Shown here piece by piece: positions 26,865-46,633 of a DNA stretch of 64,000 bases; position 1 is the stretch's first letter, and each line of letters begins with the position of its first letter. The stretch is from a virus (taxonomy: Duplodnaviria; Caudoviricetes): positions 128,001 to 192,000 of the IMG/VR virus record IMGVR_UViG_3300037851_000284. The stretch is one strand, 5' to 3'. Below the pieces are notes generated by a model, which searched no databases, had not been told where the DNA came from, and worked only from the letters and a program-made list of their open reading frames with translations. The position numbers and the translations under genes were made by a program.

Positions 26865-27047
26865 TTATTCCTTAATCTTGTCTATATTAACAGGATTTAT
26901 AGAAATAGGGTCATCGACTTCCCTAATCGAAATTACTGTTTCTAATCCAGTAATATTAGATACTTGATCTTTAATAGTTTTAATATAGGTATTATAATCT
27001 ATTCCGTCAGGTAAGTCTATGATAATAGAGGCTCTTATAGAACTCAT
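26865..27047 (-). CDS. Small hypothetical protein (60 aa)
   Basis: Fills the gap between two giant genes, coupled at both ends. Confidence 0.5.
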   Translation of the reverse strand: MSSIRASIIIDLPDGIDYNTYIKTIKDQVSNITGLETVISIREVDDPISINPVNIDKIKE

Positions 27048-30000
27048 TATCCATATTTCCTATCCAATTGTGATGAACCAAAGCTTGGTATACTTGTAGT
27101 ATAGTTAGAATATATAAGGTTCGGCTTTGTTTTCCACTCATTTAACAACGGGTTAGAATTACTATAAGAGTTCTTTAAGATATTATTTATTATATTACTA
27201 CGTTGTTTTTTATCATTCATTTTGTTTAATCGTATAAATGCTTCTTTTGAGAAGGAAGCATTAACGGTGTCCAAAGGAACCCGTCTATCAAGTTCTAAAT
27301 CAGATAGTATTCCGTTATGATTTCCATTAATATCAGAACCTAAATCAACAAACCCGTCTAGAGGATTTAATGAATTAGACATTTGGTTTGGTCTAAAAAA
27401 ATTAGCAGCTAGAAATACTGCCGCTCCTATAGCTCCAAATTTTCCAGTAGTTTTAGTAAAATTAATTGCTCTAGGATATTCTCTTAGAATCCTTGATCCA
27501 AAGCTTTCTGCTGCCTCATTAAAATTAATGTTTTCATAAGGCTCGCCTATTTTAAGTTTATCTAATATACTAATAGCTTTATTCAGTTCTGTTTGTTCAC
27601 TAATCCAAGCCTTTGATTCTCCCTTTGTTCCAAACTTTTGATGATATTTTATTATTCCTTCAGTTAATAGTTGATGAGCCTTATCTCTTTCTTCGTTTGT
27701 TTCAAAATAATCAGATAAGATATCCTTTAACGCTAAACGTGTCTCTGGATTTTTATTATATGGATTTGTTAATGCTGCTACTGCTAAAGAAATTCTCTTA
27801 ATTTTATCGACTCCGTGCTTAATCATGCTAATTGGTAGTTGTTCCATTCCAGCCAATCCAGTAGTTAATGATGTTCCTATAAACTTATTTAAAGTAAGAG
27901 TGTTATTTTTAGATAAGCTATCCATCTGCATTATTTGTCTACCTCTGGTTTCTAATATATTTGTGAATATACCAACTGCTCTTTTAGAAACAGACATCAA
28001 GGCTGATTCGTCCACCATCTTTTTAACTATATCATTAGTAACTACACTTGGATCCCTAGTTGAAATTTTTTCAACCATATCTATTAGATTTCTAAAGTTT
28101 CCTTTAATAGCATCTTCTGCGTCTTGACTTCCTAGTTCTACGGTTTTCTCGCTAATTCTTCCCGTTTCTCTATCAAAATATCCAACTCTAGCTTTTGAAT
28201 TTTCAAAACCAATAATTTTTCTTTGTTCACTTATAGCATCTCGAACCGTTTTAAATTTACCGTTCTCTTTTATCTTAGTATTTAATATATCAATAAATGA
28301 CCTGTTAACAGATTCGTGTAAGTTTAACAATTCTTTTTCTGTATTAAAAGCATGTACCACTCCAAACATTTGGTCTCCGTCAACGTCTCCTCCAACCAAC
28401 TTCCAATATTCTGCAGCAACTGCTATTCTATTAATATCCATTCCAAAATAACTTGCTATTTCTTTAGGAACAACATTGAATCTAGCTGTTAAAAAAGGAT
28501 TGGTTCCAGAAGGAGTATAAGGAGGACGAGTAATAAAACCAGTAAATTTTCTATGCATCCATGCTCTATTTTTAATTTCAGAACCGAACACATTACTTAT
28601 TCTATCATAAAAATTTTTGGTTTGGAGAAATTCAGATTCTTTAACATCAAATTCGAACTTTTTAAAAGTTTCTTCATGAACCATAACATCATGTAGTGAA
28701 AAGTCATTAACTACGTTTCTAGTCCACTTATCTAGAAACTCTGCGTGCTTTCCTTTAAATCCTCTTGCTCCCCAACCTTCAGAATCCATAATATCTTTAA
28801 GTCTTAAATATAAAGAATTAGCATCTTGAGCAGAAGCAGCAAACCCTTGAGGAAGATGGAGGTCTGTTTCAGAATTATATACATGCCTTAGTAAATATGT
28901 AAGATATTGTTTTTTAAGGAAATCTACAGATTCGCCAACAACCTTAGAATCTTCTTTTTTCATATTTTTTTCTGCCATCATATATGCAAGAAGAACATCA
29001 TCCATTAATTTAGTACTTCTGGTAGAAAATCCAAAAGCTGTTCCCTTTTTATTCTCCTTAGATACTAAGTTAATAACATTTTCGTGATGAGCAGGAGCTT
29101 CCATTAAAAGATATTTTAATTTAACAGTCTTATTAGTTTTATCAACTTCTGCTACAAAACTATCTTTCTTTTTCTTTAGTTTATCAAAGATATTTAATAC
29201 TTCATCCGTAGATGGCAATTCGTCTTTTGTGGCAATTTGATGTAACAAGCTCTCTATATCTAGAGTTATTGTATTACCTAATTTAGGATTAACTGATAAT
29301 GCAAACACTCCTTTCTTTTGAGCTAACATAGCTCTTTGTTGCGCCGATTCTAAAGACATAATAGTTCTGTTCTTGGGATCTATTACGGCTTTAGCAAAAT
29401 TATCATTCTCCATATCATCAATTATTTCTCCAGCAACCTTTAACTTTTCTTCTTCAGAATTCTCATTAATAATATCAGATACTTTTTCAATTAATTCATT
29501 TTTTTCATCGTCTCCAAAATTATATCTTTTAAGTGCTTCTAACGATAATCCTTTTTTAATATCTAATATATCATCTATCTCCTCCAGACTTAACGTTTTC
29601 ATTGTGCCAATATTAATCATTTTTAACTGGAGTCGCCTAAAGGATCTAATAGCATCTCCAAGTTTACCAGATATTCTATGTGCTCTAGCCATTTCTATTA
29701 TCTTTAAAGAAGTAGTATCTAATGCTCCCAGATGGGCTTTTTGTAATATATTTCTTCTTACTTTTATACGCGCGGGTCTAGCTTCAGTCCCATTCATTAT
29801 AGCATAAAAACTAAATCTATCAGGATGTTCTATTCCTATATCCCATTTTCCTCTACCTTTATATTTCTGTCTTGCCTCAAATAACATAGGAACTAATTTA
29901 CCTGTTCTAATAGCTTCTAAATCCGGTAAGATTAATTCATTATAGAAAGTATTATCGAAAGCTTTGTCCTTAAAAACGGCGCTAGCCAATCTAGCTGATT

Positions 30001-33000
30001 TGTTTTCGTCTTTAGATATTTCTTCAAGATAATTATTATATATGTTGCGTATGTTCTTTTTAGCGTTTTCTACTCCACCTAAAGCATTATAATAATTTTC
30101 TGCCCTTTCTGTCGTCCAAACTTGTCCAGTATCGATCATGAAAGATCTTAATTCTTCAGTAGTTAGAGAAACGTTTCCAAAGAATTTATGAGCAGCATTA
30201 ATCAAATTAACATCAGTAACGTTAGGAAACGAGCCAAGATGCGACGACCGATGTATAGGTATTTTGGTTATATCATGTATATCGGAATTCATCTTTGCCG
30301 CCCAATATTTAAGCTTTTGTTCGGCTACTACTTGTTCTTGAATAGTACCGTTTTCCATTACATTCAGCAAGTGGTCAAATCCCTTCATAACAGTAATGGT
30401 TTTCATTGGTCCAACATAACCCTTCTCTAGAAACTGGGCTGGACCAAATCCCTGCACTCCACCATACATTTTTTCTCGGGTAATCATATCCATGAATACA
30501 GATACTGCTTTACCACTAAGTCCTTTACCAACCATTGATACCCTATCTTTATCCGTGATAACATATTTGATATCAGCCATCATTTTAATAGAACCAGCAC
30601 TATCATTCCAGATATTTAATTTAGTAATTCTTCCATTAACAGGAGCATTAAAACTAATTTTTCCCAAATCTCCTCTCGAAGCCATATACTTTGTTCCCTT
30701 TGGAATTTTTGTAAGTCCTTCGTTTTCCTGTATAACTTCATAAGCCGCATAGTCATAATCGTCCTTGGTTAGAGCACTACCTTTTTTACTTTTAATTACT
30801 CTTAACTTTTCTTTAATCTTTCCCTCAAGTTTAAGAACTTGATAATTAAAACTAGGATCCTCGGCCCTAGAAGAAACATCAGAAAGATTAACTCCTATAT
30901 CAGTATGCTCAAGATTAACATCTTTAAATATTTCAGAAGTAAGATGATGTCCTCCTTCTTGGCTTCCAAAGTTAGAAATAGTTGAAAAATATTTTACCAT
31001 AACTGTATTACTAAATAAATGAGTCATAGCATCTGCGTCTCTGCCAAAACTCATAAAGTCTAATTCTCCTCTAGATATCCATGGAGGGATAATCTTACGG
31101 GCATATTTTCTTAACACGAGAGGATCTAATCTTTCATTCATGGATTTGCTATGTAGACCAGCGACTACAGCAGAAGTTCCCATCATAAATTGGTTAGCTT
31201 GTTTTGCTGGAGGATAATCTGGAATGGGTAAAAAATGTCTAGTAGTAAATATAGAGAAAGCATATTTAGCCGCTTGACCAGAAGATAATGCTGTAGAAGA
31301 AGGAATAAATCCAAATAAGTTTGTCATTTCTATATCTCTAGCATCTTTTATTTGGTCGTCAAACGACTTAAATGCGTGATAAGAATTATATTTATATTCT
31401 AACTCTTCATATGCCGAATCAAATTGTTTTTTTCCTTTATGATATTTTTCCAATTCGTGACCTAATAATAAATGTAATAACATACTGTCGGTTCCAGCAT
31501 CGTGAGCAAATAGAGTTTTGTCATTATTTAATTTTTTTAATAAGGCAGTACTAACCACTAAATTACTTTGTGGTCTACCTCTCAAAGTATTTATTGCTTC
31601 TATAATATTATTACTTGTTTCAAAATTATGAGCAGATAAACCTTTTTCTTTCATCATTAGCTTTAATAAATTAGTTTGAGACAATGACTCTACTCCACCA
31701 ACCACTACTCTATTAATTTCTACAATTCCATGAACGTCTATATGACTAATATTAGCATATTTTTTAAGTTTGCTAAAACCGATGGGGTCCTTAGATTCTA
31801 AAATTTCAAGCATTTTGAAATCGTAATAGGTTCCGAATTTAGAAGTAAGATATATAGGTTTGTCAGGATTTTCTTCAACAACCCTGATTATTTTTTCTAC
31901 CAAATGTCTTGCGATATCGTTGTTATCTTTAAAATCTCTTCCCTGAGTTTTTGTTAACGATTTTATTTTTTCTCCCCATTTGTTAATAATATCTTCTGGG
32001 GATCTACCTCTTAATTCATTTTTTTCTTGAGCACTAAGATATGTATCTCTTATCCATTCTGCCTGCTCCATATCAAATGGAAGCTCTTTCATTTTATCAA
32101 CACCGTGACTGCTAAAAAACTTTTGCATATCATGTAAAGTTACTTTTCCAGTAGAACTAATATCTGCCACTGAAAATCCAGCTTGAGTTATTTGTGTATG
32201 AGCGTCAGTTATTTGAACATTGGGACCAGCTTTCTTATTAGAAATAGTTTCTAAGTCCACACTTATTACCAGAGCCCCATCAGTTAATCGAGCTAGTCTT
32301 TTGAATCCTTGTAAGTCTTTTAGGTTATTACCCCATTTTAATTTATTAGATACTCGCTCATCCCTATAATAAAACATTCCTTGTTTTATTGGGTCTCTAT
32401 TAGTTGTTTCGATTCTACTAGCAACCTCAAGAGTATCTCTCATTATAAAATTAAACCTACTAAAAGCATGTTCTGGGTTATATTTAAAATCACTAGATAG
32501 ATTGCTTTTTATATACCTAATCAAATTTCTTATAGTAGCCTGTGTCATATTCATATAAGGCATTTTTTTATTTATAGGCGCAGGGTCAGGAATCTTAACA
32601 TCATATTTTTGAACTCCATATGGAGATGTTGCTGGTAATATTCCATATTGAGCCAAAGGAATATTTAAAACTTTTTCTTTCCCTCGAGCAACGTGTTTTG
32701 CTGAAAATCTCAAATAATATCTGGGACTCTCCTTAGGACCATCTTGAATTATAGCTAAACTATGAGATTCAAATCCATTATCTTCGGTAGCTATTTCTTC
32801 CAATGCTGCCATTAAACTTTTAATATCATTGGTATAATCAAATTCTCCTAATAACTTAAATTCTGGCGTAATTGGAATAAATTTCCTACTATATAGAGAT
32901 GAAGATGTTACTGGTTTTCTTTTTAGTTCTTCGTTTGATAATACGGTTTTAACTTTATATTTATTTATTTTCCCAATATAGCGAAGATTAGCTCCTATAT

Positions 33001-33799
33001 TTCTATTGGTTTCTCTAATATTTGTATAAAGCATTAACTGTTTTGTTATTTCAGGAGTAATAGAAAATAGCTTACTGGTAGTATTATAAGCCACTATATT
33101 ATGATTATAATTTGCTTTAAAAGAGGTTAATCTTCTAATATACATATCTGCTAAATCAGGATCTTCTCGAGTATATAAATCAATTAGTTTATTTAATTTG
33201 ATACCGTCTTTATCGGGGTCATTTAATAGTTGTAATTCTTTTCCGTGTCCTTCGCTTATATACGGATTATGTAAAAAATAATTCTCCAGAATATCTTTTC
33301 TTATTTCAAATAACATACTATCTTTATTCATTTTAATAATAGATAAGTATGCTTTAGGGTCATTAACTTCTCCAATGTTTGAAAAAGTTATATCGTCTTT
33401 CATTTTAGATAATATATCGTCTTCTATAGTAGATATTTGATTTAATTTATTAGTTCTTAAAGTATTGCCAATCCCTCCTTCTGGATAGGCATTTCGAGCC
33501 GGAGAAATTTTTTCGATCACTCTATCTATCTCGGTTTCAGGTTGGAATGACCTAAAAGGTAAATCTAATGTAGCATTAGGTCCAAGAATTCTTTTTTGAG
33601 AATCAATACGTTTATAATCTTCTCTTTCGATTATTCTTTTTGCGTTACTATCATGAATCCGGTTTATAATATCTTTAGCTGGCCCCTTCATTTTATGAGC
33701 AGCAAACACGAGACCAGACAATACTCCAACTTTTAATAATGTTCGAGTAAACCACCCTTCGTTCTTATCATTTTTATTATCTGGATAATATTGGTTCAT
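27047..33799 (-). CDS. Putative single-chain two-barrel (DPBB) virion RNA polymerase with N-terminal DEDDh exonuclease (2250 aa)
   Basis: FITRPP...IAVAAEYWKLVGGDVDGDQMFGVVH (D1805/D1807/D1809) matches beta-prime NRAP...[12 protein letters not shown]. Beta-like segments lie near 30420-31010. DEDDh motifs: VDLET (D515/E517), YYD (D660), AHDAGTD (H766/D771). Confidence 0.65.
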   Translation of the reverse strand: MNQYYPDNKNDKNEGWFTRTLLKVGVLSGLVFAAHKMKGPAKDIINRIHDSNAKRIIEREDYKRIDSQKRILGPNATLDLPFRSFQPETEIDRVIEKISPARNAYPEGGIGNTLRTNKLNQISTIEDDILSKMKDDITFSNIGEVNDPKAYLSIIKMNKDSMLFEIRKDILENYFLHNPYISEGHGKELQLLNDPDKDGIKLNKLIDLYTREDPDLADMYIRRLTSFKANYNHNIVAYNTTSKLFSITPEITKQLMLYTNIRETNRNIGANLRYIGKINKYKVKTVLSNEELKRKPVTSSSLYSRKFIPITPEFKLLGEFDYTNDIKSLMAALEEIATEDNGFESHSLAIIQDGPKESPRYYLRFSAKHVARGKEKVLNIPLAQYGILPATSPYGVQKYDVKIPDPAPINKKMPYMNMTQATIRNLIRYIKSNLSSDFKYNPEHAFSRFNFIMRDTLEVASRIETTNRDPIKQGMFYYRDERVSNKLKWGNNLKDLQGFKRLARLTDGALVISVDLETISNKKAGPNVQITDAHTQITQAGFSVADISSTGKVTLHDMQKFFSSHGVDKMKELPFDMEQAEWIRDTYLSAQEKNELRGRSPEDIINKWGEKIKSLTKTQGRDFKDNNDIARHLVEKIIRVVEENPDKPIYLTSKFGTYYDFKMLEILESKDPIGFSKLKKYANISHIDVHGIVEINRVVVGGVESLSQTNLLKLMMKEKGLSAHNFETSNNIIEAINTLRGRPQSNLVVSTALLKKLNNDKTLFAHDAGTDSMLLHLLLGHELEKYHKGKKQFDSAYEELEYKYNSYHAFKSFDDQIKDARDIEMTNLFGFIPSSTALSSGQAAKYAFSIFTTRHFLPIPDYPPAKQANQFMMGTSAVVAGLHSKSMNERLDPLVLRKYARKIIPPWISRGELDFMSFGRDADAMTHLFSNTVMVKYFSTISNFGSQEGGHHLTSEIFKDVNLEHTDIGVNLSDVSSRAEDPSFNYQVLKLEGKIKEKLRVIKSKKGSALTKDDYDYAAYEVIQENEGLTKIPKGTKYMASRGDLGKISFNAPVNGRITKLNIWNDSAGSIKMMADIKYVITDKDRVSMVGKGLSGKAVSVFMDMITREKMYGGVQGFGPAQFLEKGYVGPMKTITVMKGFDHLLNVMENGTIQEQVVAEQKLKYWAAKMNSDIHDITKIPIHRSSHLGSFPNVTDVNLINAAHKFFGNVSLTTEELRSFMIDTGQVWTTERAENYYNALGGVENAKKNIRNIYNNYLEEISKDENKSARLASAVFKDKAFDNTFYNELILPDLEAIRTGKLVPMLFEARQKYKGRGKWDIGIEHPDRFSFYAIMNGTEARPARIKVRRNILQKAHLGALDTTSLKIIEMARAHRISGKLGDAIRSFRRLQLKMINIGTMKTLSLEEIDDILDIKKGLSLEALKRYNFGDDEKNELIEKVSDIINENSEEEKLKVAGEIIDDMENDNFAKAVIDPKNRTIMSLESAQQRAMLAQKKGVFALSVNPKLGNTITLDIESLLHQIATKDELPSTDEVLNIFDKLKKKKDSFVAEVDKTNKTVKLKYLLMEAPAHHENVINLVSKENKKGTAFGFSTRSTKLMDDVLLAYMMAEKNMKKEDSKVVGESVDFLKKQYLTYLLRHVYNSETDLHLPQGFAASAQDANSLYLRLKDIMDSEGWGARGFKGKHAEFLDKWTRNVVNDFSLHDVMVHEETFKKFEFDVKESEFLQTKNFYDRISNVFGSEIKNRAWMHRKFTGFITRPPYTPSGTNPFLTARFNVVPKEIASYFGMDINRIAVAAEYWKLVGGDVDGDQMFGVVHAFNTEKELLNLHESVNRSFIDILNTKIKENGKFKTVRDAISEQRKIIGFENSKARVGYFDRETGRISEKTVELGSQDAEDAIKGNFRNLIDMVEKISTRDPSVVTNDIVKKMVDESALMSVSKRAVGIFTNILETRGRQIMQMDSLSKNNTLTLNKFIGTSLTTGLAGMEQLPISMIKHGVDKIKRISLAVAALTNPYNKNPETRLALKDILSDYFETNEERDKAHQLLTEGIIKYHQKFGTKGESKAWISEQTELNKAISILDKLKIGEPYENINFNEAAESFGSRILREYPRAINFTKTTGKFGAIGAAVFLAANFFRPNQMSNSLNPLDGFVDLGSDINGNHNGILSDLELDRRVPLDTVNASFSKEAFIRLNKMNDKKQRSNIINNILKNSYSNSNPLLNEWKTKPNLIYSNYTTSIPSFGSSQLDRKYG

Positions 33800-33801
33800 A
33801 T

Positions 33802-36800
33802 TTATAACCCGTATTTTTCTCTTCTATTAAGAGCGTTAAAAATAGTTCTAGACCTATCTCTCCTTATTAGTATATCGATCTGGTTGTGTTCGTCTGAGTT
33901 ATTATTTATATATACTTGGACAGACGATTTAATTCCGTCCTTACTAAACAGATTATTAATCGCTCCTCTGATTCCGGCCTGATTAATATTTGGGCTAGGA
34001 GGAGAATAATTATTTAATTTTTCTATATTAGCTGCTTTTATATCCATGTTACTTTCTTGTAAACGCAACATCTGTTCGTTCCAACCCAAACCAAATTCAA
34101 ATTGATCGAATCCTTGTTCTTGAACAGTCTTTAATTTTATATCATCTAATGGAACACTAGGATCCAGCACGCTTCTATCAAATGCGTATTTTGGTCTTCC
34201 CGCTGCTATTTCTTCGCTACTTCTTTGTATATAGTTTTTAGTGGCATCCTTACTATCATTTTTTGACCATTGATGTTTTAATGCATTAGCTAAATCGTCA
34301 GGAATATATTTTAAAATTTCCTCTCGTTTTTTAGGGTCTCTTGTATTTAAGAATGATTCTATATATGGTTTCTCGAATGGAGTGGTAGCCCTAAATAAAT
34401 TAGCGACAGTAGCTCCTTTTCCTCCTTGATTAAACGCTGTTAATGTAGCTTCTTTTTGTTGTAAGTATTCTTGTTGAGTTAATCCGGTAGACAATTGAGC
34501 TAACATGTCATTTCTTTCAAATTTGGCTGCATCAAAGTAAGACATAATCTCTCTTTTTTCCTTTATTGATGCAGGAATATAAGTAGAATTAGTCATAAAT
34601 CTGTATAATCCATGACCCGTACCATAAATAGCTCCCGCTCCAACTCCAACAATAGCGCCTAAAGGTCCGCCTAAAATTAAACCTCCCATACCATAAGATA
34701 ATGCTCCAGCAAACGGGTCAGTTTTAGCAGCAAGACCCCTAGAATATGGTTCCAACCATCCTCTTATTGGTTCATCCCAAGGTTTATATTCCTTTCCATA
34801 TAATCTGGTCATTTTATAATGTTCTAACGGGTCTTTAGCAGCAAATAATTTATTTACTATAAAAGTATTAGTATTAGTAAACCGTTCCCACAAGGCACCT
34901 ATCATTCTTTCTGGCAAACTATATTCTGCTGCTGCTTTTATATCTTCATTAATAGACTGTATGTTGGCGGTGTTTTCAGGATGTAATACTTTTCCTTTAA
35001 ATCGATTCGGGTATAGTTCGTAAGATCTAATCCTAGCTTGTTTTATTTTAAGAGCACTATGATATTTTTCTAAATCGTCTTTATTCAACACTCCATATTT
35101 AATTTGAGTATCAACTATCTTTTTTGCTTCTTTATATTCAAGACTATTTGGAGCTACATCAGCCAATATTTTCAATCTATCAACCCAAGAATAACTGAAT
35201 CCTAAAGTATCAGCTACTCCTTCTTCCATCATAGTAGCAGCAATTTTTCTTGCTTCATATAATTTTTTGACATCTTCTTCCCATCTACTTTTACTATAAG
35301 GTATATCAAAAGTCTTAACTTGAGAAGGATTTTCTCTATTAACATATAATAACGTTCCTCGTTTCATATTAAGCATACGTAAATAAAAATTAAGCTGCGA
35401 ATAATGTTCTGATTTAGGAGCATCTAATACTGCGAATGCTTCGTCGTTAATAGTTTTAATTTCTAATGCTCTTCTTCCTCTACCTCCATAACCATCTCTA
35501 ATAATAGCATCAACGTGACCAGTAATGTCGTTCTTTACATCTTGAACAAAAGCTTCGGCTTGTATTAACATTCCTTCAGACGCTAAGGTTCGTTGTACAG
35601 ATTCGTGAAATGCTGTTCCTTTTTCCAATATATTGTATGATTCTAATTGAGTCGGAGGAATTAATCCAGTAAAATATTGGACTATATTTTGCGTTGTTCC
35701 TCCAATCATGGAATTATGTACTAATGCAAAAGGAACACAATAATTATGATTATTTTCAATCGTTAAATCGTACACTTTACCAATATATTTCTTTTTAGAA
35801 ATAGATTTAATTTTATAAGGTATAAATCCTTTATAAATTAAAACATTAAGTTGTTCATTATTTTTATCAAATCCAAAAATATTAGATAATACATTTGCTT
35901 GATTATCATATAATCTAATATCGTATCTTTGAGTGGATGAAATTATTCTATCTTCTTTAATAAATTGAACATCTTTTCCTTTTCTATAACATAGTCCTGG
36001 TCGAAATCCTAAAGAACATAATAATTTAAATATACTAAATGATAGATTTTCTATACAAGTAGCTACACCTATTTCTGAACCAGATTTTTTATTACTTTTT
36101 TTAATATACCAACCATCTCCAGCGAAATAACCAGATAATAAAGCATTAATATTTTTATTACCAATGTTATAAATTTCTTTAGGAAGATGTTTATTTTTTG
36201 CTTTTCCGCATAAAGATTCTAAAATATCTCTCAATATAGTTGAATTTGAAGTAACTCTTGCACTATTATTAGTAATTAAAATAGTAGTAGAAGAATGAAA
36301 TAATTTTTCTGTTATATTTTTAATAAAAGTATGATATTCTATTTCATTAGAATGAAATGAAAATGTAGTTTGACTAGAAGATAGAGATCCTTCTGCTAAA
36401 TAAAATCCAATTAATTTCATTAATTCTGAAGTAATATTTAAGTATCTATCATATCTTTTTATTCCGTTACTATATACTCCATTTTTTTTAAATGTATATT
36501 TATTATATATTTTTAATAATTCAAATAAATCTATACTTTTAATATTGTTTGTAATTTTAATAATTGGAGTAACTAAATAATCTCCAGATTCTAAATCTTT
36601 AGCTTTATTTTCAGTTATACTATAGTCTGATTCTTTACAATATTTTAATGCGTTTTTATTTTTACATTCAAAACAACATCTTTTAGATTTTGGTTCATTT
36701 GGATAATATTTACATTTATTAGTTTTTATTGAAAAAATATCATGATTATCTGTGACATTAATATTATATTTTTTATTAATTCCAACCAATTCTATATCTA

Positions 36801-39800
36801 ATATTTCTCCATCAAAATCTTTTTCGTGTAATGCTAAAATTTTCTGATAAGTTCCATCGTTAGTTAATGAGTCTTTAGCGGTAATAATAGGAACTAATCC
36901 TTTAGATGTATCAATCAAAGTGTCTGGAGTAAAACAAGCTCTAGCAGGTAACGTTCTCTTTACGTTTGTATGAGTGCTAAGATATGCATCTCCAGGAAGT
37001 CTCAGTTCTCCCCTAAGAATCTTTTCGTATGGGTCTCCTTTTAAAAAGTGAGCTGGTAACCAGTTAGGCATCCTGTTTGGTATCGGATTTAAACCATACT
37101 GTCTATAATTTGGTTTTTCTATTAATCTTCTTAGTGGCTCGGTTAATATACCCATACCGCCGAGGTTTAAATCTGTGTAGCTTCTACTAAAAGATGCTAT
37201 TCTACCGGCTGTTTGTAATGTTGGTACTACAGTATTTTCTCCAAATATTCTATTAGTTATTGTTCCGGCCAAGAATCCTTTTAATCCGGCAAAGTTTTGT
37301 ATATCATATAAGAAGTCTTCTGCTGCGGATTCAGACCAGTTCCTATTATTCATTAGGCTAATTTTTCCAAAATTATTAGCCATTCCTGCTGTAGTATTTC
37401 CAGGTCCTCCGTTGGGATTCATTAATGCCATTCCTTCTGGAATAGTAGGAGGTCTTATAGCAAAAGGATATGGGTCTCCTGGAGTTCCCCCTCTAACAGA
37501 AGAACCACCCTCTAGAAACTCTTGATGCATAGTCTTTGGAGGTTTTAATATTCTACCAACCGTAGAAGATAAGATTTTGCCAACTCCAGGAAACTCGTCA
37601 AAAATACCTCCAGTAATCGGGTAAGGTCTAGTAAAATAATGTGAGTTGTGATATGATGCTAAAATTCCAAGAAAAGAGTGAGACTTTTCTATTTTAACAT
37701 CTATAACATTACCAGAAAATTTAGTAAAATTTATCTCTTTAATTTTAACATAAATATAGTTATCATCAATAAAATACCATTTTGGAGACTTTATTTGTTT
37801 ATTAATTTTAAATCCGATATATGATCTTAAATCATTAATATTATTACCATAAACAAATAATAAATGTTGATCTGCTTCATTTTCTTTTTTAGATTTAATA
37901 TATGAGTATGTTGGTATAAATCCAAGCGAAAATAAAATACTTCTTATTTGAAAAATTAAATTTTGTGAAACAGAAATACAAGATATTGAACAATCATTAG
38001 ATTGATCAGATCCGTTTCCTCTAAAATATCCAATTATTAACTCTTTTAATAAAATAGAAGAAGAATAATATATTTCATCTGGGATGTGTTTATCATAACA
38101 AGAACTTCCAAAAGAACTTTTAAAAAATCTAGCTAATATCGAATTTGAACAAATAATTCTAAATTTATTTCCATCTTGATGCGTTGTGCACTCTATCTTA
38201 AACAAAGATTTTATAATCGAAATTACATCATTATGATATTCTGTTTCTTTAGAATGAAAATCAAAAACAACAGTTCTATCTCCACAGTATCCTTCCGCTA
38301 AATAATACCCAAATAATCTCCATAATAATCTATTTCTAATTATTTGTTTTGGAATATTTTTATTATTATGTTTTGTTTGATTGTGAATACTAACATAACC
38401 AGAATTTGATTTTTCTTTAATTTTAATTCTAGGATAAACCAAAAAATCATTTTTTTCTAATTCATCTGCTCTAACCCATTCTGGTATATAATTTTTCTTA
38501 TATTTACACCTTTTGCATTTTATCCAAGTTTTATTAAAACAAGGAGTTTTTCTATTTTTTCTATGAAAACAAATAGAGGATTTAATTGCTAAATATCGGT
38601 GTTCTCTAGTAGTTTTATTATCAATATTAGATAAGGCAGTTTTAATAGAAATTATATTTTCATCAATATGTTTAATCCATTTTTCTAAAACTTTTTGTTT
38701 TGTTCCATTGTGTGTTAAAATAGTATCACCAACATTTAAATCTTTAATTTGTATAACTTCACTATTTTCTTTTAATATAAGAGTATCTTCTACTACACAA
38801 CGCTCCATATAATACGGATCTAATATATCGCCAACGTTAAATCCAAGAAGCGGAAGAGGCTCGTGTATTAATCGTCTGAAAGCAGACCCATATAAAGTGT
38901 CAGTTTCTTTCCATCTTGATTTAGCTCTTACATACCAGTTTGGAGAATATCCTACTACATTACTGCCTTCCCATGGAGTTCCTCCAAGCAACCAAGTGGG
39001 AGATTTCATTATAGGAACTTCTTTTCTCCCAGAGTATTCTTCTTTTAATTCCTCATAAGATTTTGTAAGATTGGGAAGATATGGACTAGCCAGCCTATTA
39101 ACTAATGCTCCACCAATAGCATATCTAGCAACTCTTAAAGGAGGAGATTTTGACATTAATCCGAGTACACTACCAAACATCATTCCAGGAATAGACGATT
39201 CAGAGAAAGGAGCTAACCCATGAAGATATTTCATGGTACCAGTAACACCAGTAATATCTGCTACTCGTGCTCCAAATAAACGCGCTTTGGCTATATTATC
39301 AGCAGCTAGACCTGTTATTCCTTCTTCTAATGAGGTTTCATCAAATAGTGGGTTAGATGCAGTTATAGTATCAAGTATTCTATATGCTCCGAATACCGCA
39401 GCTGTTGTACCAACCACTCTTCCTATATATTTCAGATTTCCAGTCCACCCATGATTTTCCATATAATATTTTTTAAATGGTAACCATTCCGCCATCATGT
39501 CCGTGGTTCGTTCGGTGGCTTTTAAGGCAAAGTCTCCAAGTATTTCTAGTCCTTTATCTGGAAGAGACACAAACGGATGAGGGTCAGTAGCAAACTTTAT
39601 TCTACTAAAGGTTTTTTCTTGTGATAATTCTATGCTCGATTTAATTATATCATTATTAGAAATAAAATTAATTAACTCGTTAGTAATATCCCATTTATTC
39701 TGCTTAGCTCTGTCTCTAACGTTATCTAGTATTAATTTTGTTCCATCAGAAGAAAAATCCAAACCTTTTATTAATTTATCTTCTCTTATAATAGGAGATA

Positions 39801-42261
39801 GCTTTGCGTGTAATAATAGAGCATCTTTTTCAGATCGGGTAATTAAATTTTTTCTATACCATTCTTCAGCTAGATTTAATAAAGGATGCGGTTTGTTTTT
39901 ATCTGATTTTTTTAGAAAATCTTTATTAAAAACGTCCTCTATAACATTAGTTCTAGCTACATCATATGATGTCATTTCGGAGAAATGACCAAGCCGTTGT
40001 ATTACATTATGATGTTTTGCTTTTTCAGGATATGCTTTAATATCTTCTATTGATCTTATAACGTCTTTATTAGCAATTTCTCCTTTAGCGTGTAGAGCAG
40101 AAATTTTATCAATGAATGTTTGATCGTCCCATATATAAGATAACGGATTATCATCTATATCAACTGCTTTAGCGGCTATCGACATAGCATCTCTAGACCT
40201 ACCTACACGCGAAAGTATTTGGGAAGTGCGACCATAAATAGTATCAATAATAGATAACGCTTTACCCATCATGCGAGTATCGTGTTTTCCAAGCGGGTCA
40301 TCGAATATACTATTAAACTCTAATCTATAATCTTTAGAAGTAGAAAATCTAGATTCTATTTTTCTAAATAATTTTTCAGCTGCTGCAGGCAAACCAAGTT
40401 TGGCTCTATCTAAAAAGTGTAGCCATTTATTATTTATTATTTTACCATGGTCTAGTTCTTCAATTAATTTATTATATTCTGCAGTACCAAGTTCGTCTTT
40501 TAAATGTTTTAAGCGATTAATAGTAATACTTTTTAATTCATGAGATTTATCATATCCCGTTTTGTGTGAGAAATATAAGCTTCTATGAGTATCTACTTGG
40601 TGAACTGTAGCTCCGTCAAATATAGACCATTTTCCGCCTTTGGTATAAATATATAATCTATTTCCATCTTGGTCTCCTACATCAGCAACGGAACTATAGT
40701 TTTTATCATTAAATCTAAATTCGGGTCTATTTCTGGTACCAAAGTAATCAGGAGAATCAGCAACCCAACGATGAGTATTAGTAAGGTCTGCTAAACTAAA
40801 AGTTGATTTAATAAAAGGAGCGCGAACTTGATATGTTAAGATAGGAGATAGTGCTTTTTTAACTAAGTGGATGGGGTCTAAGAAATTTAAATCAACTCTA
40901 CCACCTATTATTCTAGGATTTTTCCAATCTTTATATATATTATGTCCTACTGTCATATTAAGGATATTATCCATTAATTGATCAGCATCACTTTTTACAT
41001 ATTTTTGCTTAAGATTTCCTAAAACATCATTAATAACATCCTTTTTTAATACGTCTTTTAATAAAACAGGCTGAAGTACTTTACCGAATATTTTCTGTAA
41101 AATAGAGGTTCTGTCTTTATGTTTATGTATTTCTGAATAAAAAGTATCCTTTAATTGAGCACCATCTAATGGTATCTTCTTAAGTCCTTTATATTCAGCC
41201 TCTTTTCTTGTCCATTCCTGAAATTCATAAAAAGTGTTTAATCCAGCATATTTAACAGTAGAAGTAGGACTGGTCTTTGGTTTATTAAGGGCGGCTTTAG
41301 CTTCATCTACAGCCGTTTTAAGGAAGCCAAATACCTTTTGGGTACGCTGTCCAAATGATATATTAGGTGCCTTCCTTGCCTCTCTAACGGCTTCTGGTAG
41401 GGTATATAGAGAATCTTGTAAACTTCTAAAGGCTTCACTTACGTTTTTACCAAAATGTAGGCCTTTTTTAATAGAAGAATCGACAAACTCACTTTCGTGT
41501 TTAGTTAATAAACCTTGAAATCTATTATCTAATCTATTATCAGAGAATCTAGATGCCCAATTTAATACCTTTTTACCGAATTCTCCTTGGAAAGTCTTTT
41601 GAACTGTTCTGAATCCTGCAGAACCAATAGCTCCAACTATAGGACCAGCCGCACCAAAAGTCATACCGGCTATAGTACTATATCCCAACCACTTACCAAA
41701 ATTAGATATCTTTCCAGGAACGTCATACCATTCCTTCTTCTCAAGTCCCATATCTCTAGTAAAACCAAGCATTTGGTCTACACCATAAGCTACAGCCATA
41801 CCAGAAAGAACATTACGTTTCCATACTCCAGCAACAGATGCTATAAAAGTAGCAGGGTTTTTAAAAGCAGTTTGTAATCTTTTTATACCATATCCAGACT
41901 CACCTTTCATTCCCTCTAGAAGTTTTCTTCTTTCTTGACCGGCCTTGTAAACTGATGATTCAGTAATTGTTCTTTTTATGGGAGAGGTATAAGCCTTTAT
42001 ATTTCTATAAGTTGTTATGGTTTTATCTGCTAAATTCTTTCTTATGCCTGTAGTGGAACCAGCAGACCAAGATTTTAAAGTAGATTTAGAGAAGCCTATT
42101 AAACGGCGAGTTACTATAGACCCAGCTATATTTAGAGCAAAAGCTGTCCCCATTAACTTTAGAGTGGAACCAATTTCCATTCTAGGAGCAACATTACTCT
42201 CGGGTTGATAATAATTTTCATTATCATTATCAAGAGGATTATAGTAAGTATTTTGAGCCAT
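33802..42261 (-). CDS. Giant tape-measure-like/ejection protein with two inteins and a PD-(D/E)XK nuclease domain (2819 aa precursor, about 2026 aa spliced)
   Basis: Follows the tail chaperone genes; has Gly/Ala-rich amphipathic segments (GMTFGAAGPIVGAIG; GMGGLILGGPLGAIVGVGAG); intein and nuclease motifs listed separately. Confidence 0.7.
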   Translation of the reverse strand: MAQNTYYNPLDNDNENYYQPESNVAPRMEIGSTLKLMGTAFALNIAGSIVTRRLIGFSKSTLKSWSAGSTTGIRKNLADKTITTYRNIKAYTSPIKRTITESSVYKAGQERRKLLEGMKGESGYGIKRLQTAFKNPATFIASVAGVWKRNVLSGMAVAYGVDQMLGFTRDMGLEKKEWYDVPGKISNFGKWLGYSTIAGMTFGAAGPIVGAIGSAGFRTVQKTFQGEFGKKVLNWASRFSDNRLDNRFQGLLTKHESEFVDSSIKKGLHFGKNVSEAFRSLQDSLYTLPEAVREARKAPNISFGQRTQKVFGFLKTAVDEAKAALNKPKTSPTSTVKYAGLNTFYEFQEWTRKEAEYKGLKKIPLDGAQLKDTFYSEIHKHKDRTSILQKIFGKVLQPVLLKDVLKKDVINDVLGNLKQKYVKSDADQLMDNILNMTVGHNIYKDWKNPRIIGGRVDLNFLDPIHLVKKALSPILTYQVRAPFIKSTFSLADLTNTHRWVADSPDYFGTRNRPEFRFNDKNYSSVADVGDQDGNRLYIYTKGGKWSIFDGATVHQVDTHRSLYFSHKTGYDKSHELKSITINRLKHLKDELGTAEYNKLIEELDHGKIINNKWLHFLDRAKLGLPAAAEKLFRKIESRFSTSKDYRLEFNSIFDDPLGKHDTRMMGKALSIIDTIYGRTSQILSRVGRSRDAMSIAAKAVDIDDNPLSYIWDDQTFIDKISALHAKGEIANKDVIRSIEDIKAYPEKAKHHNVIQRLGHFSEMTSYDVARTNVIEDVFNKDFLKKSDKNKPHPLLNLAEEWYRKNLITRSEKDALLLHAKLSPIIREDKLIKGLDFSSDGTKLILDNVRDRAKQNKWDITNELINFISNNDIIKSSIELSQEKTFSRIKFATDPHPFVSLPDKGLEILGDFALKATERTTDMMAEWLPFKKYYMENHGWTGNLKYIGRVVGTTAAVFGAYRILDTITASNPLFDETSLEEGITGLAADNIAKARLFGARVADITGVTGTMKYLHGLAPFSESSIPGMMFGSVLGLMSKSPPLRVARYAIGGALVNRLASPYLPNLTKSYEELKEEYSGRKEVPIMKSPTWLLGGTPWEGSNVVGYSPNWYVRAKSRWKETDTLYGSAFRRLIHEPLPLLGFNVGDILDPYYMERCVVEDTLILKENSEVIQIKDLNVGDTILTHNGTKQKVLEKWIKHIDENIISIKTALSNIDNKTTREHRYLAIKSSICFHRKNRKTPCFNKTWIKCKRCKYKKNYIPEWVRADELEKNDFLVYPRIKIKEKSNSGYVSIHNQTKHNNKNIPKQIIRNRLLWRLFGYYLAEGYCGDRTVVFDFHSKETEYHNDVISIIKSLFKIECTTHQDGNKFRIICSNSILARFFKSSFGSSCYDKHIPDEIYYSSSILLKELIIGYFRGNGSDQSNDCSISCISVSQNLIFQIRSILFSLGFIPTYSYIKSKKENEADQHLLFVYGNNINDLRSYIGFKINKQIKSPKWYFIDDNYIYVKIKEINFTKFSGNVIDVKIEKSHSFLGILASYHNSHYFTRPYPITGGIFDEFPGVGKILSSTVGRILKPPKTMHQEFLEGGSSVRGGTPGDPYPFAIRPPTIPEGMALMNPNGGPGNTTAGMANNFGKISLMNNRNWSESAAEDFLYDIQNFAGLKGFLAGTITNRIFGENTVVPTLQTAGRIASFSRSYTDLNLGGMGILTEPLRRLIEKPNYRQYGLNPIPNRMPNWLPAHFLKGDPYEKILRGELRLPGDAYLSTHTNVKRTLPARACFTPDTLIDTSKGLVPIITAKDSLTNDGTYQKILALHEKDFDGEILDIELVGINKKYNINVTDNHDIFSIKTNKCKYYPNEPKSKRCCFECKNKNALKYCKESDYSITENKAKDLESGDYLVTPIIKITNNIKSIDLFELLKIYNKYTFKKNGVYSNGIKRYDRYLNITSELMKLIGFYLAEGSLSSSQTTFSFHSNEIEYHTFIKNITEKLFHSSTTILITNNSARVTSNSTILRDILESLCGKAKNKHLPKEIYNIGNKNINALLSGYFAGDGWYIKKSNKKSGSEIGVATCIENLSFSIFKLLCSLGFRPGLCYRKGKDVQFIKEDRIISSTQRYDIRLYDNQANVLSNIFGFDKNNEQLNVLIYKGFIPYKIKSISKKKYIGKVYDLTIENNHNYCVPFALVHNSMIGGTTQNIVQYFTGLIPPTQLESYNILEKGTAFHESVQRTLASEGMLIQAEAFVQDVKNDITGHVDAIIRDGYGGRGRRALEIKTINDEAFAVLDAPKSEHYSQLNFYLRMLNMKRGTLLYVNRENPSQVKTFDIPYSKSRWEEDVKKLYEARKIAATMMEEGVADTLGFSYSWVDRLKILADVAPNSLEYKEAKKIVDTQIKYGVLNKDDLEKYHSALKIKQARIRSYELYPNRFKGKVLHPENTANIQSINEDIKAAAEYSLPERMIGALWERFTNTNTFIVNKLFAAKDPLEHYKMTRLYGKEYKPWDEPIRGWLEPYSRGLAAKTDPFAGALSYGMGGLILGGPLGAIVGVGAGAIYGTGHGLYRFMTNSTYIPASIKEKREIMSYFDAAKFERNDMLAQLSTGLTQQEYLQQKEATLTAFNQGGKGATVANLFRATTPFEKPYIESFLNTRDPKKREEILKYIPDDLANALKHQWSKNDSKDATKNYIQRSSEEIAAGRPKYAFDRSVLDPSVPLDDIKLKTVQEQGFDQFEFGLGWNEQMLRLQESNMDIKAANIEKLNNYSPPSPNINQAGIRGAINNLFSKDGIKSSVQVYINNNSDEHNQIDILIRRDRSRTIFNALNRREKYGL
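35713..36936 (-). mobile_element. Intein 2 with LAGLIDADG endonuclease (408 aa, residues 1776-2183)
   Basis: Starts CFTPDTLIDTSKG; LAGLIDADG motifs LIGFYLAEGS and LLSGYFAGDG; ends NHNYCVPFALVHN followed by Ser. The exteins rejoin as LPARA-SMIGG. Confidence 0.93.
37645..38799 (-). mobile_element. Intein 1 with LAGLIDADG endonuclease (385 aa, residues 1155-1539)
   Basis: Starts CVVEDTLIL...IKDLNVGDTILTHNG; motifs LFGYYLAEGY and LIIGYFRGNG; ends SHSFLGILASYHN followed by Ser. The exteins rejoin as DPYYMER-SHYFTRPYP. Confidence 0.93.
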
Positions 42262-42809
42262 TATTTAGGGATACCTAGGTGAGCGCTTATTTTATTCATT
42301 TTTTCCTGTAGACTTTTACCTTCATCAGGAAGTTTGTTTGTATTTATAAGTCCGTGTTTTTTACCAATATCAAAAATCTGTTTACCAGTTATATATTCAC
42401 ATAAACAAACTAATTCTAGAAGGTCTTTAATATTTAACTTTAATAATTCAGTAAAAGATTGTCCAGGAAGATAAGTTAATATATTTTTAATAGCAATCAT
42501 CGCATCATCTTTCTTTAAACTCTCCCTAAATTCGTTTATAGTAATTTCGAAAAGTTGAGATGATTCTAATAATCCATTTATTCGTTTAAGTACATCTTCG
42601 CCTATTTTCATTCTTACAACGAAGGGAACCTTATCTGGATCTAATTGATATATAACTTGTCTACCAGCTATATCATATTTAACCCCCTCATTTTTAATAT
42701 TAGATAAAAAACTATATTCTAAAGTATTAAGGTCTCTATAATAAACTTCTGTTTTCTTTTTATCTATCACACACGAAATTTTATAAAGCTTTGTATTTCT
42801 TGTAAACAT
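42261..42809 (-). CDS. Putative tail assembly chaperone (182 aa)
   Basis: Located just before the tape-measure-like gene; YYRDLNTLEY pattern resembles that of the upstream chaperone; GGAGG RBS. Confidence 0.5.
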   Translation of the reverse strand: MFTRNTKLYKISCVIDKKKTEVYYRDLNTLEYSFLSNIKNEGVKYDIAGRQVIYQLDPDKVPFVVRMKIGEDVLKRINGLLESSQLFEITINEFRESLKKDDAMIAIKNILTYLPGQSFTELLKLNIKDLLELVCLCEYITGKQIFDIGKKHGLINTNKLPDEGKSLQEKMNKISAHLGIPK

Positions 42810-42880: not shown

Positions 42881-43180
42881 TTATACTTCTTCTATATCAC
42901 CTATTTCAAATCCAGAAGCTAACATTATCTTTTCAGCTAGAACCGTGGATATTCCGGCTTTATTCTTAAGCTCTGCAGGATCTAAAGGAGATAGTACACA
43001 TTTCCTTACTACTTCTATATCGTGGTCAAAAGCCCTAGGATCACTAGCTTGGATAGCCAGTATATCCATATAATCTTCTCTGGTAAGAGTTCTAAAATAA
43101 AAATCTTTACCCAAAAGATTCATACGATATACGTAAGTATACTTGTCTTTCCACTCTTTTACTTGTTCTTGAATTTCCAT
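42881..43180 (-). CDS. Tail assembly chaperone (99 aa)
   Basis: Small acidic protein (FYFRTLTREDY...KAGISTVLAEKIMLASGF) in the canonical position after the tube genes; GGGAG RBS. Confidence 0.6.
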   Translation of the reverse strand: MEIQEQVKEWKDKYTYVYRMNLLGKDFYFRTLTREDYMDILAIQASDPRAFDHDIEVVRKCVLSPLDPAELKNKAGISTVLAEKIMLASGFEIGDIEEV

Positions 43181-45542: not shown

Positions 45543-46633
45543 TCTCTAGTAGTTGTTCCTATTGGTGTGTTTACAGCATGACTTATATAATCATTTACAC
45601 TGGTAGCAACCCCATTATCAAGACTTCCCTGAGCATTCCAACCAGTCAAAGTTCTTTGTTTAATCTCTATTTGGTTATTAATGGATTCTAATTCTTTATA
45701 TAATCCTGTTAGTATTTTTAATTGTTTATCTTTCTCTCTCTTTAAATCTTCTCTTGAAACATAATCTTTACCATTAGCTAATCTATTTAGCCATTCCGAT
45801 GCATAAAAAGTAAACGCTCCAGCCACTGCTCTTTTATTAGTTTCTTTATCTATCTCAGCTATAATAGTTTCACAATCAGTAATATCTTGTTGAACTTTCT
45901 TTTGATAATCCATAAGAGCAGAAAATTGATTATCAATAAATAATCCTTTAACTTGTCTTTCAAACATCATATCTTTAAATTCCGCAATATCTTTATAAGC
46001 TATCATCTGGTCCATATCTTTAGCCACATATTGCATAGTACATTCACTATATAAATCGTTAATACTATGGACTTGACCCTCATCTAGAAATTCTACACCA
46101 TATAGTCTGGTAATTGAACGATGACCATATTCATTTTGAAATAATAGTATTAAATCAATAGGAGGTAGTTGGTCGGGTAAAGGAGAAGTGGTCCTATCCG
46201 AAGGATTCTTAATATAATTTAATTCTTTTATAACATCATAAAGTGGGGCTCTATCAAACACGATAAATATCATACTTCCCGCAATTGTTCTTGGACCAGC
46301 AGTATATCCTTTTGCGTGGGAACGACCTAAAACCCTTACAGCTGATTTTTCCCTATGAATAGAGTGAGATATAGTTTCTAGATTACCTAGAACTATAAGT
46401 TTATTATTAAGCTGAGCTATTACTGTACAGTCGCTGCCACTATAAGAAGTATTAGATTTACTAAAATCTATTAAAGGGTCAGCATCAAAAGGATTAGCCT
46501 CGGTAGGACCAAGGGACCCTCCAAGATAAGGTTGGGTAGAACCTAACAAATTAGTTTTAACTTGTTGGACCACGTCTTTAACAAATGGGTCTTTTTTTAA
46601 TTTATTAACTTGTTTATCTAACCACGTTGACAT
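45536..46633 (-). CDS. Tail tube paralog (tube initiator-like, 365 aa)
   Basis: GNLETISHSIHREKSAVRVLG...AGSMIF..FDR...DQLPP...NEYG...GVE...EG...SINDLYSE..MQYVA aligns end to end with the spliced tube protein. Confidence 0.75.
   Translation of the reverse strand: MSTWLDKQVNKLKKDPFVKDVVQQVKTNLLGSTQPYLGGSLGPTEANPFDADPLIDFSKSNTSYSGSDCTVIAQLNNKLIVLGNLETISHSIHREKSAVRVLGRSHAKGYTAGPRTIAGSMIFIVFDRAPLYDVIKELNYIKNPSDRTTSPLPDQLPPIDLILLFQNEYGHRSITRLYGVEFLDEGQVHSINDLYSECTMQYVAKDMDQMIAYKDIAEFKDMMFERQVKGLFIDNQFSALMDYQKKVQQDITDCETIIAEIDKETNKRAVAGAFTFYASEWLNRLANGKDYVSREDLKREKDKQLKILTGLYKELESINNQIEIKQRTLTGWNAQGSLDNGVATSVNDYISHAVNTPIGTTTREW

Follow-up and report, generated by a model that had tools for sequence, protein, structure and literature searches.

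The window analysed here is a stretch of 64,000 nucleotides from a virus (Duplodnaviria; Caudoviricetes), corresponding to bases 128001-192000 of the 219,054-bp IMG/VR record IMGVR_UViG_3300037851_000284. The G+C content is about 31%, and the two ends of the record share an overlap of 126 bp. On the minus strand of the window lies the gene for P0001, a giant tail-module protein that is interrupted by two inteins and that carries, immediately after the second intein, a domain resembling the nucleases Cas4 and lambda exonuclease. The features of this gene are as follows.

33802..42261, minus strand: P0001, a stop-free open reading frame (ORF) of 2819 amino acids (aa), or 2026 aa once the two inteins are removed
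37645..38799, minus strand: intein 1 (aa 1155-1539, 385 aa), detected with Pfam, with a LAGLIDADG endonuclease, in a conserved region of unknown fold
36937..37074, minus strand: conserved element before intein 2 (aa 1730-1775; GDPY..GELRLPG..AY..TH..P.RA)
35713..36936, minus strand: intein 2 (aa 1776-2183, 408 aa), matching Pfam Intein_splicing and LAGLIDADG_3
35212..35712, minus strand: core of the Cas4/lambda-exonuclease-like PD-(D/E)XK nuclease domain (aa 2184-2350), after intein 2
35593-35622, minus strand: KGTAFHESVQ (aa 2214-2223), with H2219 at 35605-35607
35554-35556, minus strand: E2236
35500-35526, minus strand: ITGHVDAII (aa 2246-2254), with D2251 at 35509-35511
35452-35469, minus strand: ALEIKT (aa 2265-2270), with E2267 at 35461-35463 and K2269 at 35455-35457
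35383-35406, minus strand: HYSQLNFY (aa 2286-2293), with Q2289 at 35395-35397 and Y2293 at 35383-35385

A sequence-only reading of the window had described a RecB/Cas4-like nuclease at 35250-35640, embedded in a tape-measure-like protein, from four motifs following intein 2. All four motifs are present at the positions claimed, the numbering of D2251, E2267 and K2269 is correct, and the plus strand across 35250-35640 has no ORF of at least 80 aa. The domain itself extends beyond that interval, comprising approximately aa 1760-1775 together with aa 2184-2350 (about 180-215 residues), about two thirds of the way along P0001. The catalytic set consists of E2236, D2251, E2267-x-K2269 and Q2289-xxx-Y2293, i.e., it includes the QxxxY motif. 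Assignment to the RecB/Cas4-like nucleases was borne out, well beyond chance, by three types of sequence comparison. Among the PHROG families, the phage Cas4-like phrog_1706 and phrog_2506 matched the nuclease domain with E values of 6e-21 and 2e-12, and phrog_1990 (“Cas4-domain exonuclease”) matched it with an E value of 1.5e-8. A profile of 58 family members (profile A1), compared with the PDB, matched Cas4 SSO0001 (4ic1, E 6.8e-8) and Pcal_0546 (4r5q, E 2e-3), with the Asp, the ExK and the QxxxY all aligned and the QxxxY opposite QLQIY of 4ic1. The NCBIfam cas4 model (TIGR00372) matched with an E value of 4e-6 and 26.8 bits, the curated cut-off being 65.

A restriction-endonuclease-like fold had been set beforehand as a test of the assignment, and structure prediction and two methods of structure comparison agree on such a fold. 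The AlphaFold2 (AF2) model of aa 2184-2365, calculated from the family alignment, has a mean predicted local distance difference test (pLDDT) value of 83.3 and a predicted template modelling score of 0.79, and a model of an inteinless homologue (P0004, aa 1280-1662) has a pLDDT of 73.3. The order of elements in the former (helix-strand-strand-strand-helix-strand-strand-helix) is that of the restriction-endonuclease-like core. D2251 (model position 68) is in the second strand (63-72), E2267 and K2269 (positions 84 and 86) are in the third strand (80-88), and Q2289 and Y2293 are in the helix (101-113) that follows the ExK strand. Foldseek gave a probability of 1.00, and VIA gave Z scores of 10-14 to many members of the PD-(D/E)XK group, highest for Cas4 SSO0001 (Z 14.1; 150 residues aligned, root-mean-square deviation 3.2) and LHK-Exo (Z 14.0). 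Further matches, with Foldseek or VIA-align, were lambda exonuclease, MGME1, Dna2, RecE and the nuclease domains of AdnAB and AddAB. Among predicted viral structures, the best match was A7KUR9_2 (965 residues, without a name in the tables, TMq 0.80), followed by stand-alone phage Cas4-like exonucleases. A prediction of the nuclease as a homotrimer, i.e., a lambda-exonuclease-like ring of three copies, scored 0.00, which speaks neither for nor against such a ring. As modelled, P0001 carries an autonomous nuclease module with the fold of the Cas4/lambda-exonuclease/RecB-nuclease clade and the full metal-binding and catalytic set.

The other test set for the assignment was that the catalytic D, E and K not be variable among homologues, and these residues are conserved. 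A database search returned 102 homologues of P0001, mostly of about 2040 aa, without inteins and from contigs of 200-230 kb. Counts for close homologues are from an alignment of 88 family members. The nuclease domain ranks with the most strongly conserved stretches of P0001 and is of constant length (162 residues over the span tested), and D2251 is present in all 88 sequences, K2269 in 86, E2267 in 83, Q2289 in 82, Y2293 in 86, E2236 in 83 and H2219 in 81. The N-terminal 950 residues are poorly conserved. An exhaustive profile search extended the family to 2139 clusters (at 50% identity) with E values of at most 1e-3, 618 of them at most 1e-10; most of the best 150 of the 2139 are 1300-4900 aa long and carry the domain at about two thirds of their length. 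Of 120 diverse representatives from among these best 150, which share less than 50% of their sequence with one another, 108 retain the entire six-residue signature E-D-(E/D)-K-Q-Y, the Q being present in 114 and the Y in 113. In a small divergent clade (P0082-P0086 and P0088), Pro replaces E2267 and the Gln of QxxxY has been lost; judged from these substitutions, the domains of this clade, although retained, are probably catalytically dead.

Megablast of phage records gave no match for P0001, Pfam found only the inteins in the whole protein, profiles of the conserved regions on either side of the domain (A3, aa 940-1770; A4, aa 2350-2819) found no relatives among solved structures, and a feature search of the ESM-Atlas with the middle region gave no usable match. 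Close relatives of the P0001 gene are present on two contigs (196.6 kb and 92.9 kb) deposited as metagenome-assembled genomes and labelled “Candidatus Bathyarchaeia archaeon” and “Candidatus Omnitrophota bacterium”. Most likely, these are phage contigs that were binned by mistake.

The embedded domain resembles Cas4 without being a true Cas4. The iron–sulphur (Fe-S) set of Cas4 comprises four cysteines, one N-terminal and three C-terminal, and there is no cysteine in aa 2184-2365 of P0001; because there are no cysteines, the domain has no Fe-S cluster. The cas4 model score is below its cut-off. There is no CRISPR (clustered regularly interspaced short palindromic repeats) context at the locus, where the neighbours are genes for sheath, tube, chaperone, giant tail and hub proteins. 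On these sequence characters, the domain is classified as Cas4-like. The same record encodes a second protein of this type.

Record positions ~77,600-78,600 (L006:1480-2496), minus strand: stand-alone Cas4-like nuclease, 338 aa, matching Pfam PDDEXK_1

This gene is far from the tail genes and its product is 21% identical to the embedded domain. In a pairwise alignment, the N-terminal GECRRSMYY of the stand-alone protein, which holds a cysteine, is opposite GGTTQNIVQY of P0001; the GECRRSMYY region is what we take to be the position of the first Cas4 Fe-S ligand. The presence of a stand-alone gene elsewhere suggests that the embedded domain is a distant paralogue with a separate job. The stand-alone gene adjoins genes for a sigma-70 region-2 protein and a GP88-family protein.

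Both inteins are complete: each has Cys1, a TxxH block, a terminal HN, Ser at position +1 and an endonuclease with two LAGLIDADG motifs. In intein 2, these blocks are C1776, VTDNH, LVHN2183, S2184 (the +1 residue), LIGFYLAEG and LSGYFAGDG. All features tested being present, intein 2 is, by its sequence, a class 1 intein with a LAGLIDADG homing endonuclease. It corresponds to a clean gap of 408 residues in 85 of the 88 aligned members, and homologous inteins occupy the same site in P0012 and P0028. The site of intein 1 is occupied in 6 of the 88, including P0001, P0016, P0039, P0043 and P0069. The second LAGLIDADG motif of intein 1 (GYFRGNGS) has Asn where that of intein 2 (GYFAGDGW) has Asp, thus the homing endonuclease of intein 1 may be partly degenerate.

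The position of intein 2 relative to the nuclease fold can be judged from the model of the inteinless homologue P0004, in which the intein-2 site is between residues 126 and 127 (126|127) and the element corresponding to aa 1730-1775 is ordered (pLDDT 71-88). VIA alignments of this model start at its residues 119-123 for Cas4, MGME1, Dna2 and others, and at residues 81-85 for SSO0001, LHK-Exo and lambda exonuclease; in some alignments the element, apart from its last 6-15 residues, is aligned with the N-terminal extensions of the latter three proteins. Extrapolating from the alignment of the stand-alone Cas4-like protein and the coordinates of the cas4 profile, S2184 would be within about the first ten of the 180 positions of the cas4 model. 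Together, these data place intein 2 slightly within the nuclease fold, at its N-terminal edge, rather than merely ahead of it, and an unspliced precursor would therefore be without a native nuclease. The sequence-only reading, in which intein 2 had to splice to give the nuclease its native N-terminal flank, is thereby supported and made more precise.

A permuted homologue, P0091 (L003:10001-15676), defines the module further. It is encoded within an equivalent tail-module synteny, but its nuclease core is N-terminal: its aa 23-191 correspond to aa 2184-2349 of P0001, and the remainder corresponds, in P0001 numbering, to 981-1773 followed by 2357-2780, so that the parts which flank the core in P0001 are joined directly. 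This permutation implies that the core is an autonomous module with boundaries matching those given for P0001. Inclusion of the whole of aa 1730-1775 in the nuclease fold was considered and not adopted, as the core of P0091 is not adjacent to this element; because of this arrangement, only the last 6-15 residues before the intein are claimed for the fold.

Inteins have entered this family at many sites: at least 10 were found, at ~1093/1099, 1155, 1549, 1706, 1745, 1757, 1776, 2287, 2369, 2452/2461 and 2491 (P0001 numbering). Four of these (1745, 1757, 1776 and 2287) fall within the nuclease region or at its border, the last of them immediately ahead of the QxxxY helix. The great length of the largest members, e.g. 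P0118 (4920 aa) and P0128 (4392 aa), is due to their holding several inteins, each having 3-4 stretches that match Pfam splicing domains and further Hint matches. Judged from its sequences, this family (the gp145-like family, described below) is an exceptional intein hot spot. Homing inteins typically occupy conserved functional sites of nucleotide-handling enzymes, and their repeated presence in the nuclease region is thus indirect support for its having a function.

The gene for P0001 lies in a tail module whose other members, together with the capsid gene and two hydrophobic segments of P0001, are as follows (ORF numbers are those of the Bacillus thuringiensis phage 0305phi8-36).

61729-63057: capsid, matching ORF125
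49473-52238: sheath, matching ORF139
47681-48127 and 45536-46633: tube and tube paralogue, matching ORF140/141
43233-45542: virion structural protein, matching ORF142
42881-43180, minus strand: tail chaperonin, 99 aa, matching ORF143 (“hypothetical tail chaperonin”, E 8e-12)
42261-42809, minus strand: ORF of 182 aa in tail-chaperone position, directly upstream of P0001
41617-41673, minus strand: second glycine-zipper-like hydrophobic segment of P0001 (aa 197-215), from Kyte-Doolittle analysis
34627..34683, minus strand: glycine-zipper-like hydrophobic segment of P0001 (aa 2527-2545), downstream of the nuclease, which also aligns with gp145
27047..33799, minus strand: giant protein in the slot of gp146, 2250 aa, the next gene after P0001
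19812..26861, minus strand: baseplate hub, 2349 aa, with a cell-wall-degrading domain (phrog_20474 endolysin, E 4e-36), matching the ORF147 hub by tblastn
17246-18499: gpJ-like baseplate protein, matching ORF151

The hub gene closes a block of three giant genes (P0001, the gp146-slot gene and the hub). The gene order sheath, tube, chaperones, gp145-like gene, second giant gene, hub is common to the window and 0305phi8-36, and recurs in contig L003. For the ORFs 47681-48127, 45536-46633 and 43233-45542, the misleading PHROG label “major head protein” (phrog_9206) raised the possibility of a split capsid gene; this was ruled out by the synteny of the tail tube and by the location of the capsid gene at 61729-63057. 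Endonuclease ORFs (46834-47667 and 48149-49207, phrog_4645) are interspersed among the tube-paralogue ORFs.

P0001 matches ORF145 of 0305phi8-36 in five collinear tblastn segments, and the product of that ORF, gp145 (“virion structural protein”), matches the family profile A2 with an E value of 3e-70. The homology is collinear over the conserved two thirds of P0001, with an identity of about 27-35%. The gene for gp145, like that for P0001, follows those for two tail chaperones and precedes those for another giant protein and the hub, and gp145 retains the D, DxK and QQLNFY motifs. It differs from P0001 in having no inteins and in having an insertion of 68 residues between the strand of the D and that of the DxK. 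Sequence and position show P0001 to be the orthologue of gp145, and by the same comparison it is a gp145-type protein of an uncultured, contractile-tailed jumbo phage like 0305phi8-36. The GenBank entry for gp145 of this phage carries the remark “identified as virion protein by mass spectrometry”. The sequence-only reading had the enzyme carried in a virion tail protein, and orthology and synteny with gp145 speak for this. The nuclease domain of gp145 is mentioned neither in its GenBank annotation nor in the comparative-genomics paper on the phage (PMC2147016).

Whether P0001 resembles a tape measure is a different question. Its position, its two glycine-rich hydrophobic segments (with values of 1.81 and 1.38 in 19-residue Kyte-Doolittle windows) and its long, poorly conserved N-terminal part are features of tape measures. 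P0001 is directly downstream of the chaperone ORFs, but a second giant gene separates it from the hub, and P0001 matched no tape-measure family of Pfam or PHROG. In 0305phi8-36, the authors gave the role of ruler to gp146, from which the chaperones are one gene removed (PMC2147016). The “tape-measure-like” of the sequence-only reading thus holds for position; as the product of the next gene was the one called tape measure in 0305phi8-36, the term can be used in a positional sense only. The gp146-slot protein of the window has no hydrophobic segments, but at aa 1805 it has GGDVDGDQM, a metal motif of the RNA-polymerase type (DxDGD). BLAST found no similarity between this protein and either gp146 or the 1411-aa protein that holds this position in L003, which implies that related phages differ in what fills the slot. 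No fused RNA-polymerase region turned up in a BLAST of 220 family proteins.

The two giant proteins have a feature of composition in common. The exteins of P0001 have no cysteine in 2026 residues, all 22 cysteines being within the two inteins, and gp145 has none in 1930 aa. The proteins in the gp146 slot are also free of cysteine in three phages: in the window (2250 aa), in 0305phi8-36 (gp146, 2537 aa) and in L003 (1411 aa). Thus both giants encoded between the chaperones and the hub lack cysteine in these three phages, which are only distantly related. The gp146-slot proteins of the latter two are encoded at the following positions.

L002:32624-40237: second giant protein of 0305phi8-36, no cysteine
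L003:15673-19908: second giant protein of the phage of L003, no cysteine

In the remaining 36 ORFs of the window, cysteine makes up 1.02% on average, from which the Poisson probability of finding none is about 1e-9 for P0001 and about 1e-10 for the gp146-slot protein. The absence extends to 45 of 60 close and 44 of 50 diverse inteinless homologues. The hub proteins, unlike the two cysteine-free giants, hold 10-11 cysteines. Possibly, cysteine is excluded from proteins that lie extended in the tail, are ejected, and have to cross an oxidising compartment before they refold. Such a constraint on travelling proteins would explain why a relative of Cas4 has no Fe-S cluster, and the family-wide absence of cysteine, together with the loss of the Fe-S cluster, may serve as a sequence signature of tail-travelling proteins.

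Enzymes built into the interior proteins of phage tails are known. Tape-measure or tail-tip proteins with cell-wall hydrolase domains include T5 Pb2 and the Tmp of mycobacteriophage TM4; these are also virion proteins with working enzymes, but their hydrolases act on the cell envelope. A closer parallel is gp96 of Thermus phage P23-45, a tape measure fused to a virion RNA polymerase and thought to be injected ahead of the DNA (PMC10770324). In both gp96 and P0001, a nucleic-acid enzyme is part of a giant tail-interior protein, and the gene next to that for P0001 encodes a polymerase-like giant protein; the two differ in the enzyme (polymerase versus nuclease) and in the tail (siphovirus versus contractile), there is no sequence relationship between them, and P0001 is known from its sequence. 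The gp4 of T4-type phages is a virion-associated nuclease, but it is a small, TnsA-like head-completion protein rather than a giant of the tail module (PMC7824862). The nearest relatives of the domain itself, i.e., Cas4 (SSO0001, Pcal_0546) and the clade of lambda exonuclease, LHK-Exo, MGME1, Dna2 and AddB-AdnA, have the same fold and the same D...(D/E)xK...QxxxY layout, but stand alone or are joined to a helicase, whereas the domain of P0001 is embedded in a tail-module protein of about 2000 residues. No description of a nuclease in a tape-measure, tail-interior or gp145-type protein was found in the literature searched, which did not cover subscription-only papers. To the known enzymes of tail-interior proteins, P0001 would add a nuclease as cargo; the window also contributes the intein-interrupted domain, the intein hot spot, the permuted homologue, the stand-alone paralogue and the family-wide absence of cysteine.

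The reading we favour, and hold to be reasonably probable, is that P0001 is a virion-borne gp145-type protein which delivers a nuclease, and that the role of this nuclease is to process the entering end of the phage's own DNA. Expulsion before the DNA has been proposed for tape measures (PMC10770324). After splicing of both inteins, P0001 would be built into the interior of the tail alongside a tape-measure-type protein, in few copies per virion. At infection it would be driven out before the DNA as an extended chain, a passage that its lack of cysteine and of cofactors would permit. The glycine-rich hydrophobic segments would anchor it at the entry pore, and the nuclease would refold on the cytoplasmic side, where it would act on the single entering end of the phage DNA, being tethered beside it. 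With its 5′ strand resected, the end would carry a 3′ tail, a poor substrate for RecBCD/AddAB that is ready for annealing or recombination. The phage end is the likeliest substrate because few tethered copies would be beside one DNA end and because the relatives of the domain are 5′-3′ end-processing enzymes. As gp145 belongs to the virus particle of a cultured relative, the phage probably introduces a ready-made nuclease into the cell along with its DNA. Release of the nuclease by proteolysis, which the sequence-only reading had also offered, finds no support in the results.

Several points weigh against this reading. Pfam gave no significant match of the nuclease domain to PDDEXK_1, Cas_Cas4 or YqaJ (the best was PDDEXK_3, E 0.21), and no match on inteinless homologues or gp145, so the family search proposed in the sequence-only reading gave significant matches with PHROG, the PDB and NCBIfam but not with Pfam. 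The nuclease activity, the presence in the virion and the ejection of P0001 are inferred from sequence, and the evidence for the virion is orthology to a protein of one cultured phage at about 30% identity. Either of the two giant proteins could be the tape measure. A folded domain of 20-25 kDa cannot pass through the tail tube, so delivery needs unfolding and refolding, both of which are assumed. The clade that keeps the domain without the canonical active site (P0082-P0086 and P0088) suggests that the domain has a structural role as well. Finally, the results are compatible with each of the substrates considered (own DNA end, host DNA or RNA).

That last point bears on the main alternative, in which the delivered nuclease attacks the host chromosome, plasmids or the nucleic acids of defence systems. 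It would shut off the host at once or counter its defences, in concert with a co-delivered RNA polymerase that would give independence from host transcription. An intact, conserved active site fits such a role, injected anti-host proteins (T4 Alt and IPI*, P1 Dar) are well known in phages, and the neighbouring giant protein has the polymerase-type DxDGD motif and is likewise without cysteine. We nevertheless consider an attack on the host unlikely, as few tail-interior copies with hydrophobic, anchor-like segments are ill-suited to the bulk degradation of a chromosome, and the solved structures closest to the domain belong to enzymes that process ends, not to endonucleases that act on intact duplex DNA.

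Less probable still is a role within the particle, in which the domain would grip the leading DNA end, or trim it once, after the joining of head and tail, either as a completion nuclease or as an end holder (pilot) that pulls the genome out as the tail-interior proteins are expelled. Folds of the lambda-exonuclease type bind a DNA end in the pocket of the active site, and persistence of the domain in the clade without E2267 would fit a binding or structural role. However, retention of the full catalytic set in 90%, including the general-base Lys and the QxxxY, exceeds what binding needs; moreover, the gene belongs to the tail module, and DNA takes no part in the assembly of myovirus tails. 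A precedent for an in-particle role is the T4-like head completion protein gp4, a virion-associated nuclease of the restriction-endonuclease fold that is needed for packaging (PMC7824862). The least probable of the explanations considered, and a very improbable one, is that a structural gene once took up a recombination exonuclease, of which the domain is now an inactive relic or a module with a structural role alone, its motifs being kept for folding. Phage structural proteins often reuse enzyme folds, the permuted P0091 shows that the core can move as a module, and some lineages have lost catalytic residues, but the signature is intact in gp145 as well as in the great majority of the diverse representatives, and homing inteins have repeatedly targeted the region, which is typical of the functionally constrained sites of enzymes.

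Tail-interior proteins of long-tailed phages are usually seen as rulers or channel formers that have, at most, cell-wall hydrolases, and an RNA polymerase fused to a tape measure was shown for one Thermus phage in 2024 (PMC10770324). A conserved, catalytically intact nuclease in widespread giant proteins would mean that a second class of nucleic-acid enzyme is delivered along with the genome, in a gp145-type family of 2139 clusters (at 50% identity) for which Pfam and GenBank name no function. The intein hot spot is of practical use in finding new inteins and marks functionally constrained sites of the protein, and 0305phi8-36, growing on Bacillus thuringiensis, is a cultured model that makes these ideas directly testable. 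The finding also bears on the old question of how the first DNA end survives host exonucleases and restriction before phage genes are expressed. Perhaps, as we put forward tentatively and with some doubt, the gp145-type protein is a genome-end-processing machine: a virion-delivered, cysteine-free chain that is threaded unfolded through the contractile tail, is anchored at the inner-membrane pore, refolds its Cas4/lambda-exonuclease-like nuclease and resects the 5′ strand of the first DNA end, beside a co-delivered RNA polymerase. If this were true, the genome would be spared RecBCD/AddAB and made ready for recombination ahead of all phage gene expression, and more than 2000 sequence clusters of unannotated tail-interior proteins would be enzyme injectors.

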